64,000 nucleotides of DNA from Escherichia phage vB_EcoM_G2133: sequence record MK327928.1. One strand, written 5' to 3'. The notes below the pieces were generated by a model that saw nothing but the letters and a program-made list of their open reading frames with translations, ran no database searches and had not been told where the DNA came from. Below, in pieces: positions 58,382-64,000 of the stretch. Each line of letters starts with the position of its first letter. Within the stretch, counting starts at the first letter, position 1. The position numbers and the translations under genes are program-made.

Positions 58382-58531
58382 TTACTGCATGACTGTGATA
58401 ACTGTCATGATAACACGTTGAATTCCGAACGCAAGAAGACCTCCTGCTACGGCTGGAACAACACCTAAACCCGCCAGTAAAATGCTACCGGATACTAATG
58501 CCGCGCTTGTAATACCTATGAATGGACTCAT
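58382..58531 (-). CDS. Small hydrophobic membrane peptide (49 aa)
   Basis: Unlisted ORF: MSPFIGITSAALVSGSILLAGLGVVPAVAGGLLAFGIQRVIMTVITVMQ; ATG overlaps gp52 stop (ATGA). Confidence 0.5.
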   Translation of the reverse strand: MSPFIGITSAALVSGSILLAGLGVVPAVAGGLLAFGIQRVIMTVITVMQ

Positions 58532-59856
58532 TTGATTTCCTCTAAATCTTTGGTGTATTCTGTAACTACATCAGTAGTTTTCCAATATTCGTTTTCTTCT
58601 TTCTTAGCTTTAGCTTCTTCAGCAAGTTTCTTTGCTTCGTCGGAAGTCATATGAAAAATATTCATTCCAACTAGTTTATCAACATAAGAAGAATACATAT
58701 CGATTTTCGAAAGTTCTTCGGTCAGTTCTTTGCGAGTTTTACCCTGTACAACGATTTCACCTAAAATTACTTTCTTAATGAAATGTGCCTTGGCAAAAGC
58801 TAAACGAAAAGCTGACTCAGTTTCTTTAATTTTATTATCAATTCGTTTTTGGACATAAGTTTTACGAACTTCAACGAAGTCTTTGATTAAATCAACTACG
58901 TTATCGTAAACTTGTAGTTTTCCTTTCTCATTAATAACCGTAATATTCTGAGAACGACGCTCAATCAACCCGAAGTCTTTCATAATTTTTGCATGGCGTT
59001 CTTCTTCGTTATCGCTCAAAGAGTATTCTTTGCGGAATTTAACTTTGAAGCCAAAACCATGCTCACCACAAGCATCATCCCATGTAATGAAGCCTTTATC
59101 TTCAAGCGGGTCTAAGATTTTACTCACGTAAGTTTCACGATCATACTTATACGGAATCTCAGTGATATTCATTTGAGTTTGTGAAGTAAACTTGTACGTT
59201 CCACGAATTTCATATTGACCGTCAATCTCAACGACTTCACCACGAAATTCTGGGAATTCTACCTTCGGTTTAGTTACTTTCTTTCCTTGAAGAGCTTGCA
59301 GTACAGCTTTCTTGACAGAAGAAACACTATGAGGAAGAATGTAAGTTGCATAACCAGTTGCAATACCGGAAACGCCATTAAGAAGAACAGTAGGAATAAT
59401 AGGCAAATAGAAAGCAGGCGGAATGTGTTCTTTATCTTGATGTACCGGAGCATATTCAGTATCTTTATACACGTTATAGAAATTTTTACTTACACGAGCA
59501 AAAATATAACGACTCGCCGCTGCCTTTTGAACGGTACGAGAACCAAAGTTTCCTTGACCATCTAACAGAGGAAAGTTATTATTCCAAGTGTTAGCCATCA
59601 AAGCTCCCGCATCTTGCGCAGAGTTTTCGCCATGGTGATATCCAAGGTCCGCTACACCACCTGCGATAGAAGCGAGCTTATGAAACTTATCTTTATTTCC
59701 TCGTGCCAAATCAAGAGCTCGAGCAATAACAAATCGTTGAACTGGCTTAAATCCATCAATCATATTTGGGATAGCACGATTTTCAACCGTGTACATAGCA
59801 TAAGCCAATGCTTCATTATCAATGATACTTTTTAAATCGCGATTATTCAGTTGCAT
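58528..59856 (-). CDS. 52: DNA topoisomerase II medium subunit gp52 (GyrA-like)
   Basis: 442 aa; GyrA N-terminal-like, active-site region …AAASRYIFARVS…. Confidence 0.9.
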   Translation of the reverse strand: MQLNNRDLKSIIDNEALAYAMYTVENRAIPNMIDGFKPVQRFVIARALDLARGNKDKFHKLASIAGGVADLGYHHGENSAQDAGALMANTWNNNFPLLDGQGNFGSRTVQKAAASRYIFARVSKNFYNVYKDTEYAPVHQDKEHIPPAFYLPIIPTVLLNGVSGIATGYATYILPHSVSSVKKAVLQALQGKKVTKPKVEFPEFRGEVVEIDGQYEIRGTYKFTSQTQMNITEIPYKYDRETYVSKILDPLEDKGFITWDDACGEHGFGFKVKFRKEYSLSDNEEERHAKIMKDFGLIERRSQNITVINEKGKLQVYDNVVDLIKDFVEVRKTYVQKRIDNKIKETESAFRLAFAKAHFIKKVILGEIVVQGKTRKELTEELSKIDMYSSYVDKLVGMNIFHMTSDEAKKLAEEAKAKKEENEYWKTTDVVTEYTKDLEEIK

Positions 59857-59860
59857 AAAT

Positions 59861-60001
59861 TTACCATACTAGTGAATGTAGTGCCATAATAACATCAGAA
59901 ATGAAAAGCACGACTTGAATTAATCCGAACATTACTCCATAATATAGTGCTACTAATAAAGTAGCAAGGGCTAATGAATAGCCCAAGATTTTCTTAATCA
60001 T
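59861..60001 (-). CDS. Small hydrophobic membrane peptide (46 aa)
   Basis: Unlisted ORF: MIKKILGYSLALATLLVALYYGVMFGLIQVVLFISDVIMALHSLVW. Confidence 0.45.
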   Translation of the reverse strand: MIKKILGYSLALATLLVALYYGVMFGLIQVVLFISDVIMALHSLVW

Positions 60002-60152
60002 TAGTAGATAACAACACAAATGTTAAATATGCACACATACCCTGAGCTAAAGCTTGCGAAAACACACTGCTGGCATCAATACAGATAGTTAAAACACATG
60101 CTACTATCCAACAAATAAATGAAATAACTCCTAATAATTTTGCAATATTCAT
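59994..60152 (-). CDS. Small hydrophobic membrane peptide (52 aa); candidate ac-like
   Basis: Unlisted ORF: MNIAKLLGVISFICWIVACVLTICIDASSVFSQALAQGMCAYLTFVLLSTND. Confidence 0.45.
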   Translation of the reverse strand: MNIAKLLGVISFICWIVACVLTICIDASSVFSQALAQGMCAYLTFVLLSTND

Positions 60153-60159
60153 ATTTTCC

Positions 60160-60240
60160 TCACTGGCGTCCGAAGACGCCTTTAGTTTTAAGATTATTAC
60201 GATAGAACTGCATCACGTGTTCGTTGTGGAAATTACTCAT
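60160..60240 (-). CDS. stp: Stp peptide (26 aa)
   Basis: Unlisted ORF: [26 protein letters not shown]; ATG overlaps ndd stop. Confidence 0.75.
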
Positions 60241-60695
60241 TAATATGCCTGCAAAACGAATTTAAAATTATCAGCCAACATACGGTTCATTTCTTCAAGT
60301 GTTTGATACTCAGAATGATGATTACGAGTAAACGCTAAAGCTAACTGTCCTTTTCCAAATCCCGTCGTCAGAGGTTTCATCTTAGAAGCAGGCAGATAAA
60401 ATACTGTGTATGGAACATTGTTATTTGCAATAGTACGCGCAAGCTGAGACCGGCGTTGACGAATATGACTTAAAACCGCACTGAATCCTTGCTTAGAACG
60501 CTGATTACCTACATAAAATCGTGCAGATACGCATGGACTACTAAATGGACCACCGAGTTTACTCACTAAAAAGTAAAATCCAGGATTAGACAAAATGTCT
60601 TTGTGCGGAGTTCCCAAAAACCACTCACCACCCTTGATTGTACCAATAACAGTTGCGCCTGCATTGTTCAGATCAGTAACAGTCATATATTTCAT
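60240..60695 (-). CDS. ndd: Nucleoid disruption protein Ndd
   Basis: 151 aa from internal Met ([11 protein letters not shown]…); longest ORF extends to 60743. Confidence 0.75.
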
Positions 60696-60755
60696 ATTAA
60701 TTTCCTCTAAATTATTTTCTACTCCAAGGCCGCATGAATACACACGGCCATTAAA

Positions 60756-60971
60756 TTACTCGTCGCAGTCGACGCTCAATTCCCAGAATTCTTCTACGGT
60801 ATAAGTTTCAGTATCATTTTCAATACAGAAACGTTCATTACTGTTATTTGCTAAAGTAGCATTAACTGTCGGTTTCTCGCTAGTGCTCTTAAGAGGTGAA
60901 ATACGAATTAACTGATCACCGTTATCTAAACAGAAAATTTCACCAACTTTTACATCTTTAAAGATTTTCAT
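60756..60971 (-). CDS. Hypothetical acidic protein
   Basis: 71-aa ORF. Confidence 0.45.
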   Translation of the reverse strand: MKIFKDVKVGEIFCLDNGDQLIRISPLKSTSEKPTVNATLANNSNERFCIENDTETYTVEEFWELSVDCDE

Positions 60972-60979
60972 AATTCACC

Positions 60980-61090
60980 TCAAGGAGTATAAAATCCGAA
61001 TGCAGTTGTTGACCATCCCATCCAATATGGGAAATTTGCACCAATGTAAAACATGAGAATATAAAACCAACCACTCAGCAAATTCATCAT
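60980..61090 (-). CDS. Hydrophobic micro-ORF (36 aa)
   Basis: Unlisted: MMNLLSGWFYILMFYIGANFPYWMGWSTTAFGFYTP; ATGA overlap with upstream ORF. Confidence 0.35.
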   Translation of the reverse strand: MMNLLSGWFYILMFYIGANFPYWMGWSTTAFGFYTP

Positions 61091-61305
61091 TTTACACCAT
61101 TCCAAATTGTTTCAACTACGGATTTTAAACCATTTTGATGAATATCCATTCCGACTACCGCCATCAAATAGATTCCAACTACAACTGAACCTAAGGCAAA
61201 AATCAGCATAAAAATGAATAAAGCCGGAAAAATATTATCGAAAAACCATTCAATAAATGTAAAAGCACTACGCTTACGTTTCATATTTTCCTCACATAAA
61301 TCCAA
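61087..61305 (-). CDS. Hypothetical membrane protein
   Basis: 72-aa ORF with one TM segment. Confidence 0.45.
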   Translation of the reverse strand: MDLCEENMKRKRSAFTFIEWFFDNIFPALFIFMLIFALGSVVVGIYLMAVVGMDIHQNGLKSVVETIWNGVK

Positions 61306-61405
61306 AATAAGCGTTTAACATATCAATCATTAAAACGATTGGGAATATACTCAAAACTATTAGTATTATAACTACATTCCATATAGCTTTAACAATCTTT
61401 TTCAT
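61292..61405 (-). CDS. Hydrophobic micro-ORF (37 aa; internal start of longer ORF)
   Basis: MKKIVKAIWNVVIILIVLSIFPIVLMIDMLNAYFGFM; the promoter-like element lies inside the longer ORF. Confidence 0.4.
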   Translation of the reverse strand: MKKIVKAIWNVVIILIVLSIFPIVLMIDMLNAYFGFM

Positions 61406-61415
61406 TTTCTGTTCC

Positions 61416-61460
61416 TCCGTAGTTGATAGGGTAATAGTACCACGGAAGAACAGTCTTGTA
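61416..61460 (-). promoter_or_regulatory. Putative early promoter (diverged copy of the repeated element)
   Basis: gtagttgatagggtaatagtaccacggaagaacagtcttgtaaac resembles the 58285/61921 elements. Confidence 0.4.
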
Positions 61461-61470
61461 AACAACTTTT

Positions 61471-61569
61471 TTAAAAATATTCGTAATAAATGTGAATACC
61501 AACTACTACCGCTGAAACCTGTGCAACCCACCACGCGCAAGCAATAAGTACAGAATTCAAAATTTTCAT
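61471..61569 (-). CDS. Hydrophobic micro-ORF (32 aa)
   Basis: Unlisted: MKILNSVLIACAWWVAQVSAVVVGIHIYYEYF. Confidence 0.35.
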   Translation of the reverse strand: MKILNSVLIACAWWVAQVSAVVVGIHIYYEYF

Positions 61570-61652
61570 AATAACCTCATCACAAAAGTAAATGTTAAAC
61601 AAATTACTGGAATACTAATTAACCAAACAAAACACCGCCATAATGAACTCAT
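61566..61652 (-). CDS. Hydrophobic micro-ORF (28 aa)
   Basis: Unlisted: MSSLWRCFVWLISIPVICLTFTFVMRLL; ATGA overlaps at both ends. Confidence 0.35.
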   Translation of the reverse strand: MSSLWRCFVWLISIPVICLTFTFVMRLL

Positions 61653-61912
61653 AGTTCAATCTCAATGATTTCAAGATTATTTTCTTTAATAGCTTTCTTT
61701 AAATCATCGTAAATAAGAACTTCCCAAGAATTGTTTAAATCACCATTCAACAAACGCTCTTGTTGCAATTTATCAGTAAGATATGGTTGATCTGATTCAT
61801 ATTTAGACAATCCCAATGAAATAAATGATGTTGCATCGTCAATTTCAGAATATTGTACATAAACAAATTCACCTGTGATTTTATGTTTAACATAAAAGAA
61901 TTTAAATTTCAT
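61649..61912 (-). CDS. Hypothetical protein (87 aa from internal Met)
   Basis: MKFKFFYVKHKITGEF…; longest ORF to 62005 would include the promoter element. Confidence 0.45.
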   Translation of the reverse strand: MKFKFFYVKHKITGEFVYVQYSEIDDATSFISLGLSKYESDQPYLTDKLQQERLLNGDLNNSWEVLIYDDLKKAIKENNLEIIEIEL

Positions 61913-61920
61913 TTTTGTTC

Positions 61921-61985
61921 CTCTGTAGTTGATAGTTGTATAGTACCACAGTCCTTGTGGTATGTAAACCGTTTTGTGAAATTTT
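61921..61985 (-). promoter_or_regulatory. Putative early promoter (repeated element)
   Basis: gtagttgatagttgtatagtaccacagtccttgtggtatgtaaaccgttttgtgaaattttttt. Confidence 0.5.
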
Positions 61986-61986
61986 T

Positions 61987-62544
61987 TTAAATGGAAAGAT
62001 ACCATCCGTTGTAGTTGCTTTTTCTTACAACCTTACGAAGGTCTTCTCTATCACCGATGAACTTCGGAGTGTACTGGATGACACCTGGGTGAATTTCTTT
62101 AGTGTTGAATATAATTATACAGTCAGCGACCTGATGATTCAGAATGGGCCCTAGATTTATTCCAGAACCATATGGATACTCTCCGCTGCATCCTGTTGTT
62201 ACAGAAATCCAACGTGAGTCAGTTTGATGTGTCTTAACTTCTACACGAAGCCCGCAGTATCTTGGATGCGCCAATACATCCCATGCGTATGTATACGGGT
62301 CATTAACGTCCTCTTGGCCTTTGTTAACATACCCGCTTAGCCAATCTGCTACAAAAAACTCTGCGTACACCGCGATACGGCATCTTTCGATAACTTCTGC
62401 TTTATCCTGGTTCGGGTTTTGTTTTAAAGAGTATCTTGCTGTATCAGCAATTTTGACCTTCATTTCACTAGTCAAATCACTGTTCGATAGGGTAAATGTC
62501 GGAATCTGAAATAGTCTCTGTAAACCCGGATTCGTTTTCTGCAT
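61987..62544 (-). CDS. denB: Endonuclease IV DenB
   Basis: 185 aa; position next to rIIB. Confidence 0.7.
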   Translation of the reverse strand: MQKTNPGLQRLFQIPTFTLSNSDLTSEMKVKIADTARYSLKQNPNQDKAEVIERCRIAVYAEFFVADWLSGYVNKGQEDVNDPYTYAWDVLAHPRYCGLRVEVKTHQTDSRWISVTTGCSGEYPYGSGINLGPILNHQVADCIIIFNTKEIHPGVIQYTPKFIGDREDLRKVVRKSNYNGWYLSI

Positions 62545-63061: not shown

Positions 63062-64000
63062 TTATTTAAATTGTTCAGTAACGTCTTCAACTACTTCGTA
63101 TTGGCAGGTACGCATTTTAGCATCGTTGTAATCAATCGGAATTGATACTACATCACGCGGATGTACTTTAACTTTTACAACTCGGCTAGTTGAACTGCCA
63201 AAGTGGCGAATATAAGATTTAGAACACACATGCAGACCACGAGAACAAGTTTGTGTATCATCGTCATTCACACGAGTACGTGGCATTTTAACTACTTTAC
63301 CAGGACTGTTATCAAAGGTATTTGAGTGACAGTCAAAGTAATTACTACGAACTACTTTCCAAGCATAGAAGTAACCATCTTCTGTAATTTCAATATCGTT
63401 TGCTACCAAGAAATCAAAGAGTCGAGATACCGCTTTTTGGCTTGGGTTTTCCAACAGATTTTCCAAGAACGGAAAATAAAATTCAAAGTTTTCACCTTTT
63501 TCCATCGAATCGAGAATACGATCAACCAGACCAGACCGCAATTCAATATTTTGATAGAACAAGCTTCCACCTTCAATTCGAACATCACCAGAAATATATT
63601 TTTCAACAGCGCGACGAACATTAATTTTTTGTGCCGCTTCTTCCAACTTATCTGCTACAAGCAGATTAAGAATTTCCTGGAAGTTTGAATGAGTATTAGG
63701 AGTTGCGTTATAAGTTACACCGTCAACAGTAATTGAAATGAATTTTTTAGAAGCATTCCAAATAATATCAGATTTAGCAACTGGAGCAATAGCTACATCG
63801 CTATTAACTTTAACTGTAATATCACCGCTAATAGTAACTTTAGAGCGTTTAGCTTCTTCAGCATTTTTCAAAACACGACGGATTGTGTCAACCGATACAC
63901 CTTGCCAATCAGCCAATTCCTGTTGGGTGTAATTACCACTTGAATACAATTTAACAATTTCAGCTTGTTCGTTTTTGGTCAGGCATTTAATATTGTACAT
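63062..64000 (-). CDS. rIIB: rIIB protein
   Basis: 312 aa; Met codon at the window edge; MYNIKCLTKNEQAEIVKLYSSGNYTQQELADW…. Confidence 0.85.
   Translation of the reverse strand: MYNIKCLTKNEQAEIVKLYSSGNYTQQELADWQGVSVDTIRRVLKNAEEAKRSKVTISGDITVKVNSDVAIAPVAKSDIIWNASKKFISITVDGVTYNATPNTHSNFQEILNLLVADKLEEAAQKINVRRAVEKYISGDVRIEGGSLFYQNIELRSGLVDRILDSMEKGENFEFYFPFLENLLENPSQKAVSRLFDFLVANDIEITEDGYFYAWKVVRSNYFDCHSNTFDNSPGKVVKMPRTRVNDDDTQTCSRGLHVCSKSYIRHFGSSTSRVVKVKVHPRDVVSIPIDYNDAKMRTCQYEVVEDVTEQFK

Follow-up and report, generated by a model that had tools for sequence, protein, structure and literature searches.

Conserved early micro-genes between denB and ndd of a T4-like phage, with products predicted to lie mostly in the host inner membrane

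Our study concerns a run of very small open reading frames between denB and ndd in Escherichia phage vB_EcoM_G2133 (MK327928.1), of which one stretch of 64,000 nucleotides (the window) was analysed. The hydrophobic micro-ORFs of this locus are the long-annotated T4 early genes ndd.2-ndd.6, and are a rediscovery that adds no new element. They are genuine, conserved and tightly packed early genes, which supports the earlier note on this DNA in its reading of the small hydrophobic-peptide ORFs that it saw between ndd and denB. Substitution patterns and distant homologues indicate selection at the protein level on five of the ORFs, in several phage genera. We propose, with a probability of roughly 60%, that the peptides are accessory, early-expressed and mostly single-pass inner-membrane micro-proteins encoded in two sigma-70-driven polycistronic units. 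The features of the locus, by position in the window, are as follows.

61940-61969, minus strand: early promoter P1, T4-type (GTTTACA-N16-TGG-TACTAT), A/T-rich upstream; serves orf87, orf28 and orf32
61649-61912, minus strand: orf87, soluble 87-aa ORF at the head of the upstream early unit; PHROG 2390
61566-61652, minus strand: orf28 (T4 ndd.6), 28-aa hydrophobic peptide; PHROG 8851, GRAVY 1.65
61471-61569, minus strand: orf32 (T4 ndd.5), 32-aa hydrophobic peptide; PHROG 5011, GRAVY 1.25
61434-61463, minus strand: early promoter P2, T4-type (GTTTACA-N16-TGG-TACTAT); serves orf37, orf65, ndd.2 and ndd.1
61292-61405, minus strand: orf37 (T4 ndd.4), 37 aa; PHROG 3098, GRAVY 1.75
61087-61284, minus strand: orf65 (a single gene for T4 ndd.3 plus ndd.2a); PHROG 2401, Pfam DUF7248, GRAVY 0.85
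60980-61090, minus strand: ndd.2, 36 aa, aromatic-rich and moderately hydrophobic; PHROG 4135, GRAVY 0.62
60756-60971, minus strand: ndd.1, soluble and acidic, 71 aa, closing the downstream unit; PHROG 2183, dN/dS 0.06
60728-60749, minus strand: RNA hairpin in the ndd.1-ndd intergenic region
59861-60152, minus strand: 52.1-like gene (46 aa, DUF7396) and ac (52 aa, acridine resistance), both hydrophobic, downstream of ndd and stp

Identity of the genes between denB and ndd

The genome that hosts the locus is that of a T4-like phage (Tequatrovirus), with a DNA identity of 96.6% to Tequatrovirus genomes. Read from denB to ndd on the minus strand, the order is orf87, orf28, orf32, promoter, orf37, orf65, ndd.2 and ndd.1. 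The ndd.2-ndd.6 families keep their place between denB and ndd, their order and their strand in 17 Tequatrovirus loci, T4 included. Genes of the locus match T4 ndd.1-ndd.6 one-to-one. The peptides of ndd.2-ndd.6 in T4 (NC_000866) are 92-100% identical to those of the locus and alike in position and order, and T4 has the same ATGA junctions and the same promoter before ndd.4; it differs in lacking the 87-aa gene that the locus carries between ndd.6 and denB. All five peptides match a PHROG over their full length (4135, E = 1.7e-24; 2401, 3.4e-30; 3098, 1.3e-20; 5011, 3.6e-26; 8851, 6.6e-16). The micro-ORFs have not been overlooked by annotation: the T4 annotation contains ndd.2, ndd.2a, ndd.3, ndd.4, ndd.5 and ndd.6, each has a PHROG family, and orf65 has a Pfam family in DUF7248. 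The further remark that such peptides are poorly characterised is borne out, in that the only open-access papers found to name ndd.4 or ndd.6 (PMC4122927, PMC6071114) give no function, and a literature search for ndd.2a found no paper.

Two of our gene models depart from the T4 annotation. The annotated ndd.4 of T4 starts five codons earlier than orf37. The reading frame of orf65 had been described as a 72-aa ORF; the frame 61087-61305 is open from a TTG, whereas an ATG start gives 65 aa, and the start is almost certainly this ATG at 61284, which lies behind a GAGGA Shine-Dalgarno sequence. The protein matches DUF7248 at E 4e-20 (71.9 bits, cut-off 27), and a broad protein search returned only eight clusters, each of which belongs to DUF7248 and seems to come from T4-like phages. 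The T4 RefSeq divides this gene into ndd.3 and ndd.2a through a 1-nt deletion in the region of 166,620-166,630 that two other T4 assemblies do not share, and the division is probably an artefact. Builders of deletions and clones are thus provided with corrected models: one 65-aa gene replacing ndd.3 and ndd.2a, and a 37-aa ndd.4.

Early promoters and packing of the cistrons

The early-promoter-like elements reported as interleaved with the ORFs are two T4-type early promoters, with P1 just outside the range (60756-61660) first drawn around the micro-ORFs. Both match the pattern GTTTAC-N16-GTGGTACTAT, which occurs four times in the 64,000-nt window against 0.01 expected; a sigma-70 scan recovered P1 as TTTACA/17/TACTAT with TG, and P2 likewise. 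Of 18 Tequatrovirus sequences, window included, 17 carry P2, which lies 58 nt (57 nt in one locus) upstream of the orf37 ATG, and P1 is kept about 546-574 nt upstream of the same ATG in most Tequatrovirus loci. From its -10 element to the end of the Shine-Dalgarno sequence, P2 repeats 38 nt of the P1 cassette in direct orientation. T4 transcripts of ndd.2-ndd.6 belong to the class 'early' (PMC9697503, supplementary file 4), and in our model host RNA polymerase would initiate at these two strong promoters right after infection.

The earlier note had described a chain of head-to-tail ATGA links. Such overlaps are found at three of the six junctions (61649-61652, orf87/orf28; 61566-61569, orf28/orf32; 61087-61090, orf65/ndd.2), while the other three are gaps, either of 7-8 nt with Shine-Dalgarno sequences or of 64-65 nt containing the promoter. 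Shine-Dalgarno sequences precede orf37 (GGAGG), orf65 and orf32. The three overlaps are kept in nearly all relatives, with orf65/ndd.2 becoming TAATG when the first ndd.2 ATG is lost. We considered ATGA overlaps as a peculiarity of the region and rejected this, as they are ordinary in the genome (29 on the window's coding strand against 5 on the other strand). Given the overlaps or short gaps between cistrons, the small products are probably synthesised together; the packed cistrons would be translated through ATGA or TAATG overlaps, or across 7-8-nt gaps from Shine-Dalgarno sequences of their own. At the end of the downstream unit lies the hairpin GGCCGUGUG...CAUGCGGCC (MFE -16.6 kcal/mol, z = -3.2), equalled by the fold of 0 of 200 shuffles. 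It is the sole strong hairpin of the unit and, without a following T-run, was not called an intrinsic terminator; it is possibly an attenuator or a processing or stability element.

The arrangement recalls the promoter-early/stem-loop (PeSL) cassettes known from hyperplastic regions of T4-type phages (Arbiol, 2010, PMC2839356; PMC4122927). The promoters of the locus fit the PeSL consensus TTTACW-N17-TAYWAT (Comeau, 2014, PMC4122927) with its A/T-rich upstream region, recur together with the leaders that follow them, and lie beside small ORFs that vary, in a region that can be deleted. The flanked ORF also varies between close relatives: orf87 is missing from T4, RB33 and N2, and elsewhere falls into two allele classes (97% versus about 52% amino acid identity), while in Mosigvirus JK36 its homologue is again ATGA-coupled to an orf28 homologue. 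Beside P2 no stem-loop was found, 76 nt from the upstream flank into the promoter folding no better than shuffled sequence (z = 0.42) and the terminator scan being empty, so that the PeSL description fits the locus in part only. Phage PST has other ORFs in exchange for ndd.4/ndd.5, which was credited to PeSL cassettes (PMC4122927, Fig. 6A). Allele replacement at orf87 suggests recombination at the promoter cassettes here too, and in this hyperplastic region repeated cassettes of this type may let single micro-genes be swapped, lost or gained.

Conservation of the reading frames

Hydrophobicity as evidence of coding was rejected against a background of six-frame ATG-ORFs of 25-75 aa from the whole window, in which 27 of 272 have a GRAVY of at least 1.2, mostly inside larger genes. 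Since hydrophobicity and ATGA overlaps are both common in the genome, it is conservation, rather than either trait, that marks these ORFs as genes. The earlier note had named frame conservation and Ka/Ks as its check; the frames are kept across related phages, and non-synonymous change lies far below synonymous change in the annotated frame alone. The micro-genes are intact in nearly all of the 17-18 Tequatrovirus sequences compared, the frameshift of orf65 in the T4 RefSeq being one exception, and orf28 is extended in one sequence. On per-ORF extractions from the Tequatrovirus loci, dN/dS is 0.05 for orf32 (variable sites by codon position 1/0/9), 0.07 for orf65 and 0.26-0.27 for ndd.2 (0.26) and orf28, while off-frame controls are mostly near or above 1. 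The value of 0.52 for orf37 comes from only seven variable sites; for orf37 and orf28, substitutions within Tequatrovirus are too few for a decisive dN/dS.

Four of the five families have homologues in other T4-like genera, and their motifs are conserved in Mosigvirus, Dhakavirus, Gaprivervirus and T4-like phages of Enterobacter and Klebsiella. These cross-genus homologues are 32-58% identical and keep their length and motifs in genera whose DNA has diverged too far to be aligned. By tblastn, orf37 is found in 596 records, about 100 of them at less than 60% identity in other genera, and its alignment over six lineages has 11 invariant columns; in-frame pN across genera is 0.04-0.41 against a pS of 0.38-0.96 (e.g. 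0.04/0.55), with no such contrast off-frame. For orf28 there are 493 phage records; W10, I14, P15, I17, C18 and F21 recur in its homologues from Mosigvirus, Dhakavirus and two T4-like contigs of IMG/VR, and a cross-genus pN/pS of 0.09/0.71 (L008 versus L023) is seen in the annotated frame only. The residues G52-L-K-S-V and I60-W-N-G of orf65 (499 records) are invariant across genera, and in ndd.2 (518 records, 25 Klebsiella phages among them) the motif G-x-N-x-P-Y-W-x-G is invariant in four lineages, with a shift of start codon in relatives. The fifth family, orf32, is confined to Tequatrovirus, with 490 records that are all at least 90% identical. Other genera hold differing subsets of the ndd.2-ndd.6 families, which argues against one obligate complex. 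A kinship between orf37 and the C-terminus of orf65 through a 'K-x-V-V-x-x-I-W-N' motif was also considered, and rejected at a profile-profile probability of 0.9%.

These comparisons bear on the reading that the ORFs are no genes at all, their frames being open by chance in an AT-rich leader or spacer that separates the promoters and is not translated. Small ORFs of hydrophobic composition abound in the window, as noted above, the shortest ORFs are open in some of their other frames too, and the peptides went undetected in T4 proteomics, which gives no protein-level class for ndd.2-ndd.6 and detects ndd.1 as an early protein (PMC9697503 and its supplement). This absence is weak counter-evidence, because proteomics can be expected to miss peptides that are so small and hydrophobic and offer few tryptic sites; a literature search found no T4 ribosome-profiling study. 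Against chance frames stand the excess of synonymous change specific to the annotated frame, the distant homologues, the conservation of start codons, Shine-Dalgarno sequences and junctions, and the lack of any Rfam family across the region at E <= 1 that might explain the conservation as RNA. The conservation data already contradict the chance-frame reading, and we give it almost no credence.

Purifying selection also weighs on a second reading, in which the micro-genes are passengers, small ORFan cassettes shuffled between repeated early-promoter elements, cheap to carry and with little or no role in infection. The repeated promoter-leader cassette and the gain, loss or replacement of orf87 would fit such passengers, as would the published PeSL model, in which ndd.4/ndd.5 serve as an example (PMC4122927), and T4 stays viable with the deletion saΔ9, by which 52.1, ac, stp, ndd, ndd.1-ndd.6 and denB are all removed (PMC6071114). 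Yet orf65 and orf32 are under strong purifying selection, orf37, orf28 and ndd.2 show cross-genus selection, the whole set is kept in about 490 sequenced phages, and saΔ9 lowers the yield to 50% of wild type and alters host lipid synthesis (PMC6071114), though the gene responsible is unmapped. We consider it improbable that the micro-genes are passengers.

Membrane placement and possible roles

The peptides had been described as very hydrophobic; ndd.2 is only moderately so, and ndd.1, within the same range, is non-hydrophobic. On a simple position-independent Hessa scale, summed over the best 19-residue segment of each peptide, orf65 scores -2.9, orf37 -1.5 and orf28 -0.7 kcal/mol, while orf32 (+1.2, borderline) and ndd.2 (+4.2) are neither of them clearly an autonomous transmembrane segment. 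One transmembrane helix is predicted in orf28 (residues about 7-25) and one in orf37, behind the basic N-terminus MKKIVK; orf65 has an N-terminal KRKR, a long putative transmembrane segment and a conserved C-terminal tail, NGLKSVVxxIWNG. Four of the products would each contain a single hydrophobic helix of sufficient length to cross the inner membrane, and ndd.2 is more likely to be interfacial, or inserted only with help. The N-terminal flanks of orf37 and orf65 carry a net positive charge, and from the flanking charges we would place their basic N-termini in the cytoplasm and their short conserved C-terminal tails in the periplasm. The 52.1-like and ac micro-genes downstream extend the cluster of small membrane peptides past the range given in the earlier note. 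T4 Ac (51-52 aa) and gp52.1 (46 aa) share with the ndd.x peptides the early accessory block, the size class and the loss in saΔ9, and have one or two hydrophobic helices, as is predicted for their small membrane neighbours. They differ in belonging to separate PHROG and Pfam families with no sequence similarity to ndd.x peptides, and Ac has an acridine-sensitivity phenotype, while no phenotype, interaction or target is assigned to any single ndd.x micro-gene.

Small regulators of the bacterial inner membrane (AcrZ, MgrB and MgtS, for instance) bind a larger membrane protein through a single transmembrane helix. The ndd.x peptides resemble these in size (fewer than 50-65 residues) and in their single helix, by analogy only; a scan of NCBIfam (curated bacterial small proteins, toxins and bacteriocins) gave no significant match for the micro-proteins. 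The earlier note's suggestion that such peptides could act on host membrane proteins is conjectural. We propose that the micro-proteins are host-takeover factors acting in or on the host inner membrane, without which laboratory strains still support growth, and that they would most likely act by binding some host membrane component helix to helix, or by changing the envelope.

Membrane-damaging toxins of type I toxin-like or holin-like kind, which would depolarise or permeabilise the inner membrane during host shut-off, could have the same size and composition, and many small immediate-early T4 genes are host-lethal once cloned (Kutter et al., 2018, PMC6071114). However, no curated toxin or holin family is matched in NCBIfam, Pfam or the function-annotated PHROGs, and the conserved non-hydrophobic motifs (NGLKSVVxxIWNG, PYWxG and KAIWN) suggest specific contacts over bulk damage. 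T4 also requires an energised membrane throughout its latent period, with lysis timed by its own late holin, which argues further against early membrane damage. Toxins of this kind therefore seem to us very improbable.

An alternative that keeps the membrane placement is that the peptides are exclusion or counter-defence factors, produced within the first minutes of infection and blocking the entry of superinfecting DNA in the manner of T4 Imm and Sp, or neutralising membrane-located abortive-infection effectors. The setting is suggestive of this: early promoters and early RNA class, an accessory block beside stp, ac, denB and rIIB in which neighbouring genes handle host defence, rII countering Rex and stp countering restriction, dispensability on laboratory strains (PMC6071114), and a patchy, cassette-like spread over genera with allele replacement, which is arms-race-like (PMC4122927). 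The peptides, however, match uncharacterised families only in PHROG, Pfam and NCBIfam, and no named exclusion or anti-defence family, and at 92-100% identity within Tequatrovirus they are unlike fast-evolving arms-race proteins. We regard such a function as possible but unlikely.

For the host-takeover factors that we favour, the phenotype of saΔ9 offers one candidate activity, as this deletion abolishes T4-induced phospholipid synthesis (Kutter et al., 2018, PMC6071114). Our tentative suggestion, which we would ourselves rate as possible but unlikely, is that at least one micro-protein is the unmapped T4 stimulator of host phospholipid and phosphatidylglycerol synthesis, and may bind an inner-membrane component of lipid synthesis or envelope stress. 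The 1990s-era lipid phenotype is confined to 13 small genes, seven of which encode hydrophobic peptides, and this makes it a narrow and testable lead. A large share of the early genes of T4-type phages encode tiny uncharacterised proteins, and the locus ranks among the densest clusters of micro-proteins with a predicted membrane location; the protein-level selection indicated by our comparisons makes its five ORFs legitimate targets for functional work.

Gene order and corrected gene models

Over the 2.5 kb around the micro-ORF block, several hundred Tequatrovirus (T4-like) genomes match at 93-97% identity (best, vB_EcoM_112, 96.6%), and comparison with the annotated Bas43 TadeuszReichstein and T4 NC_000866 gives a gene order in which every gene of the block lies on the minus strand.

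Features of the ndd-denB region and its flanks
63175-63267, minus, possible 30-aa hydrophobic ORF upstream of the denB region
61987-62544, minus, denB
61940-61969, minus, early promoter P1
61649-61912, minus, orf87 (soluble, 87 aa), no T4 counterpart
61566-61652, minus, orf28 (T4 ndd.6)
61471-61569, minus, orf32 (ndd.5)
61434-61463, minus, early promoter P2
61292-61405, minus, orf37 (ndd.4)
61087-61284, minus, orf65 (ndd.3 and ndd.2a of T4 RefSeq)
60980-61090, minus, ndd.2
60756-60971, minus, ndd.1
60728-60749, minus, hairpin between ndd.1 and ndd
60240-60695, minus, ndd
60160-60240, minus, stp
59994-60152, minus, ac (52 aa, small hydrophobic, outside the block)
59861-60001, minus, 52.1-like (46 aa, small hydrophobic, outside the block)
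58528-59856, minus, gene 52
58382-58531, minus, motA.1-like 49-aa glycine-rich peptide, small hydrophobic, ATGA-coupled to gene 52

All the small ORFs of the earlier note, four of 28-37 codons and one of 72 aa, were found as described. The 72-aa frame opens at TTG; the start is almost certainly an ATG seven codons downstream, giving 65 aa, since this codon follows a GAGGA Shine-Dalgarno sequence and relatives are annotated from it. The five peptides are hydrophobic (GRAVY 1.65 for orf28, 1.25 for orf32, 1.75 for orf37, 0.85 for orf65 and 0.62 for ndd.2), but ndd.1, which falls within the coordinates given in the earlier note, is acidic and soluble. The head-to-tail ATGA linkage holds at orf87/orf28, orf28/orf32 and orf65/ndd.2; the remaining junctions are gaps of 7 nt (orf37/orf65), 8 nt (ndd.2/ndd.1) and, where P2 lies, 64-65 nt. 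In several phages (loci L001, L003, L006 and L012) the first ndd.2 ATG is ATA, so that the start falls one codon later and the orf65 junction reads TAATG, not ATGA. The N-terminal half of ndd.2 is frameshifted in EC121 (L017), where real loss and sequencing error are both possible, and codon 6 of orf28 (61635-61637) encodes Arg in the window versus Trp in 16 of 16 Tequatrovirus relatives examined.

The T4 RefSeq sequence (NC_000866, L002) lacks one base in orf65 codon 2 (window 61270-61284; ATGAA-CGT versus ATGAAGCGT), which splits the gene into a frameshifted 'ndd.3' of 26 aa and an 'ndd.2a' of 40 aa with an internal Met start. Since the 65-aa frame is intact in sixteen relatives and in two independent T4 assemblies (OZ209057 and OZ209023; L026/L027), 'ndd.3' and 'ndd.2a' are two pieces of one gene. 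In T4, ndd.4 is annotated at 42 aa; its ATG arises from an ACG-to-ATG change specific to T4 that lies within the GGAGG Shine-Dalgarno sequence (window 61405-61425). The window and the other inspected relatives have ACG at that codon and a 37-aa orf37. Several GenBank product names, 'outer membrane protein' and 'naphthalene 1,2-dioxygenase' among them, are not credible for such proteins of 28-71 residues, and look like propagated annotation errors.

Conservation of the reading frames

Taken alone, neither hydrophobicity nor ATGA overlap exceeds chance. GRAVY is at least 1.2 in 27 of 272 window ORFs (ATG start, 25-75 codons, six frames), most of them inside larger genes, and ATGA junctions joining two ORFs are normal for this genome because 29 occur on the coding strand of the window versus 5 on the other. 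The case for genes therefore rests on conservation. Among 17-18 Tequatrovirus sequences (the window with GenBank and IMG/VR loci), whose DNA is about 88-97% identical over the interval, all five ORFs occur, nearly always intact, with amino acid identities of 86-100%.

Within-genus dN/dS (pooled Nei-Gojobori) and variable sites at codon positions 1/2/3
orf32: 0.05; 1/0/9
orf65: 0.07; 5/4/24
ndd.1: 0.06; 4/3/25
ndd.2: 0.26; 17/12/19
orf28: 0.27; 5/2/5 (too few within-genus changes to decide)
orf37: 0.52; 4/1/2 (too few within-genus changes to decide)

Off-frame controls were mostly near or above 1. More distant phages settle orf37 and orf28 as genes on comparative grounds. Homologues of orf37 (32-58% identity) in Gaprivervirus VR26, Dhakavirus MX01, an Enterobacter phage, an IMG/VR T4-like contig and Klebsiella phage P545 have 11 invariant columns in common, including K-x-I-x-N...V-L-x-I-x-P-x-V-x-x-I-D; those of orf28, in Mosigvirus JK36, Dhakavirus MX01 and two IMG/VR contigs, share an invariant W...IP-x-IC..F. 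In the annotated frame, cross-genus pN/pS is 0.04/0.55 for orf37 (locus L021 vs L023) and 0.09/0.71 for orf28 (L008 vs L023), a contrast absent from the other two frames. G-x-N-x-P-Y-W-x-G is retained in ndd.2 homologues and a C-terminal G-L-K-S-V...I-W-N-G in those of orf65. A tblastn search of 50,697 phage records found 493 matches for orf28, 490 for orf32, 596 for orf37, 499 for orf65 and 518 for ndd.2, annotated or not. These data, together with the lack of any Rfam family match in the region, lead us to reject chance ORFs. That the micro-ORFs are non-coding is contradicted by the conservation data and is highly improbable, and both the identity of the five ORFs and their gene status can be taken as near certain.

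Promoters, RNA signals and putative cassette exchange

P1 and P2 are two of four window sites matching the T4 early-promoter pattern GTTTAC-N(15-18)-GGTAYTAT (0.01 expected). Both have the UP/-35/TGn/-10 composition of T4 early promoters (PMC2988021). Both keep their positions: nearly all loci have P2 at -58 relative to the orf37 ATG, with P1 upstream of it by about 550-570 nt. A TTG-start 37-aa ORF overlapping P2 (61389-61502, minus), called a gene in GenBank records KNP5, RB33 and Ozark (L015, L016, L019), is probably spurious.

The orf37 leader GGAGGAACAGA (61410-61420) matches the rule for RegB endoribonuclease sites, GGAG with an A-rich tract after it (PMC1702504), which suggests that the orf37 mRNA may be inactivated early. 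The sole strong hairpin of the block follows ndd.1, before ndd (60728-60749, minus; -16.6 kcal/mol, z = -3.2). Outside the block, a C(UUCG)G tetraloop hairpin (60165-60180, minus; -11.5 kcal/mol, z -2.9) occupies the final stp codons directly before the ac ribosome-binding site. A 16-nt exact repeat (60148-60163 and 61280-61295) gives ac and orf65 an identical translation-initiation region (GTGAGGAAAATATGAA).

Comeau et al. illustrate shuffling by promoter-early/stem-loop (PeSL) cassettes with the exchange of T4 ndd.4/ndd.5 for ORF268/269 of phage PST, and give the T4/PST promoter consensus as TTTACW-N17-TAYWAT (PMC4122927). P1 and P2 both fit this consensus, and a 38-nt direct repeat of 84% identity (61406-61443 and 61912-61949), which in each cassette runs from the -10 element through the leader and Shine-Dalgarno sequence, is the sort of repeat that the model proposes as recombination substrate. 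However, folding found no stem-loop beside P2, so the PeSL definition applies only in part. orf87 is missing in T4, RB33 and N2, and occurs elsewhere as two allele classes (97% versus about 52% amino acid identity) in phages with flanks more than 90% identical; the allele pattern looks like cassette replacement, and together with the presence pattern is consistent with the PeSL model. The Mosigvirus orf87 homologue is ATGA-coupled to the ndd.6 homologue, as in the window.

Probable membrane placement and possible role

The earlier note correctly recognized real genes, but they had not been overlooked: their annotation goes back to the T4 genome project, and they are recognized as predicted membrane peptides. 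The T4 record labels them 'hypothetical predicted inner/outer membrane/periplasmic proteins', every ORF of the block matches an existing PHROG of unknown function, and Pfam holds orf65 as DUF7248 and 52.1 as DUF7396. That they are passenger ORFans appears improbable. The T4 time-course by Wolfram-Schauerte et al. places ndd.2, 2a, 3, 4, 5 and 6, like ac and stp, in RNA class 'early' with no protein class, and in it ndd and ndd.1 are early as both RNA and protein (PMC9697503 supplementary file 4).

On the position-independent Hessa scale, membrane insertion is predicted for orf65 (-2.9 kcal/mol), orf37 (-1.5) and orf28 (-0.7), whereas orf32 is borderline (+1.2) and ndd.2 (+4.2) is not predicted to insert on its own. 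Membrane location is probable. Basic N-terminal flanks occur in orf37 (MKKIVK) and orf65 (MKRKR), and both are predicted to be N-in/C-out, so that the conserved tail of orf65 would face the periplasm. Because genera keep different subsets (orf37 and ndd.2 in Enterobacter and Klebsiella phages, orf37 and orf65 in Gaprivervirus, orf28 in Mosigvirus and Dhakavirus), the peptides appear to be separate modules, not parts of a single obligate complex.

Our conclusion is that the five peptides are probably accessory micro-proteins, made early and active at the inner membrane. Small bacterial membrane regulators offer an analogy for their mode of action, by which they would bind a host membrane component; no homology to such regulators was found for the five. 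A role as exclusion or anti-defence factors is unlikely, and one as membrane toxins very unlikely.

A literature search for ndd.4 or ndd.6 with 'phage' found nothing beyond PMC6071114 and PMC4122927. In the former, Kutter et al. describe the T4 deletion saΔ9, which removes ~3400 bp (52.1, ac, stp, ndd, ndd.1-ndd.6 and denB), still allows a phage yield of 50% of wild-type and virtually abolishes the post-infection stimulation of phospholipid synthesis, including a marked rise in phosphatidylglycerol; the effect was not assigned to one gene, and several genes here were thought to encode membrane proteins (PMC6071114). The remaining interest of the block lies mainly in its candidate connection with the lipid phenotype of saΔ9, and in the corrected gene models.
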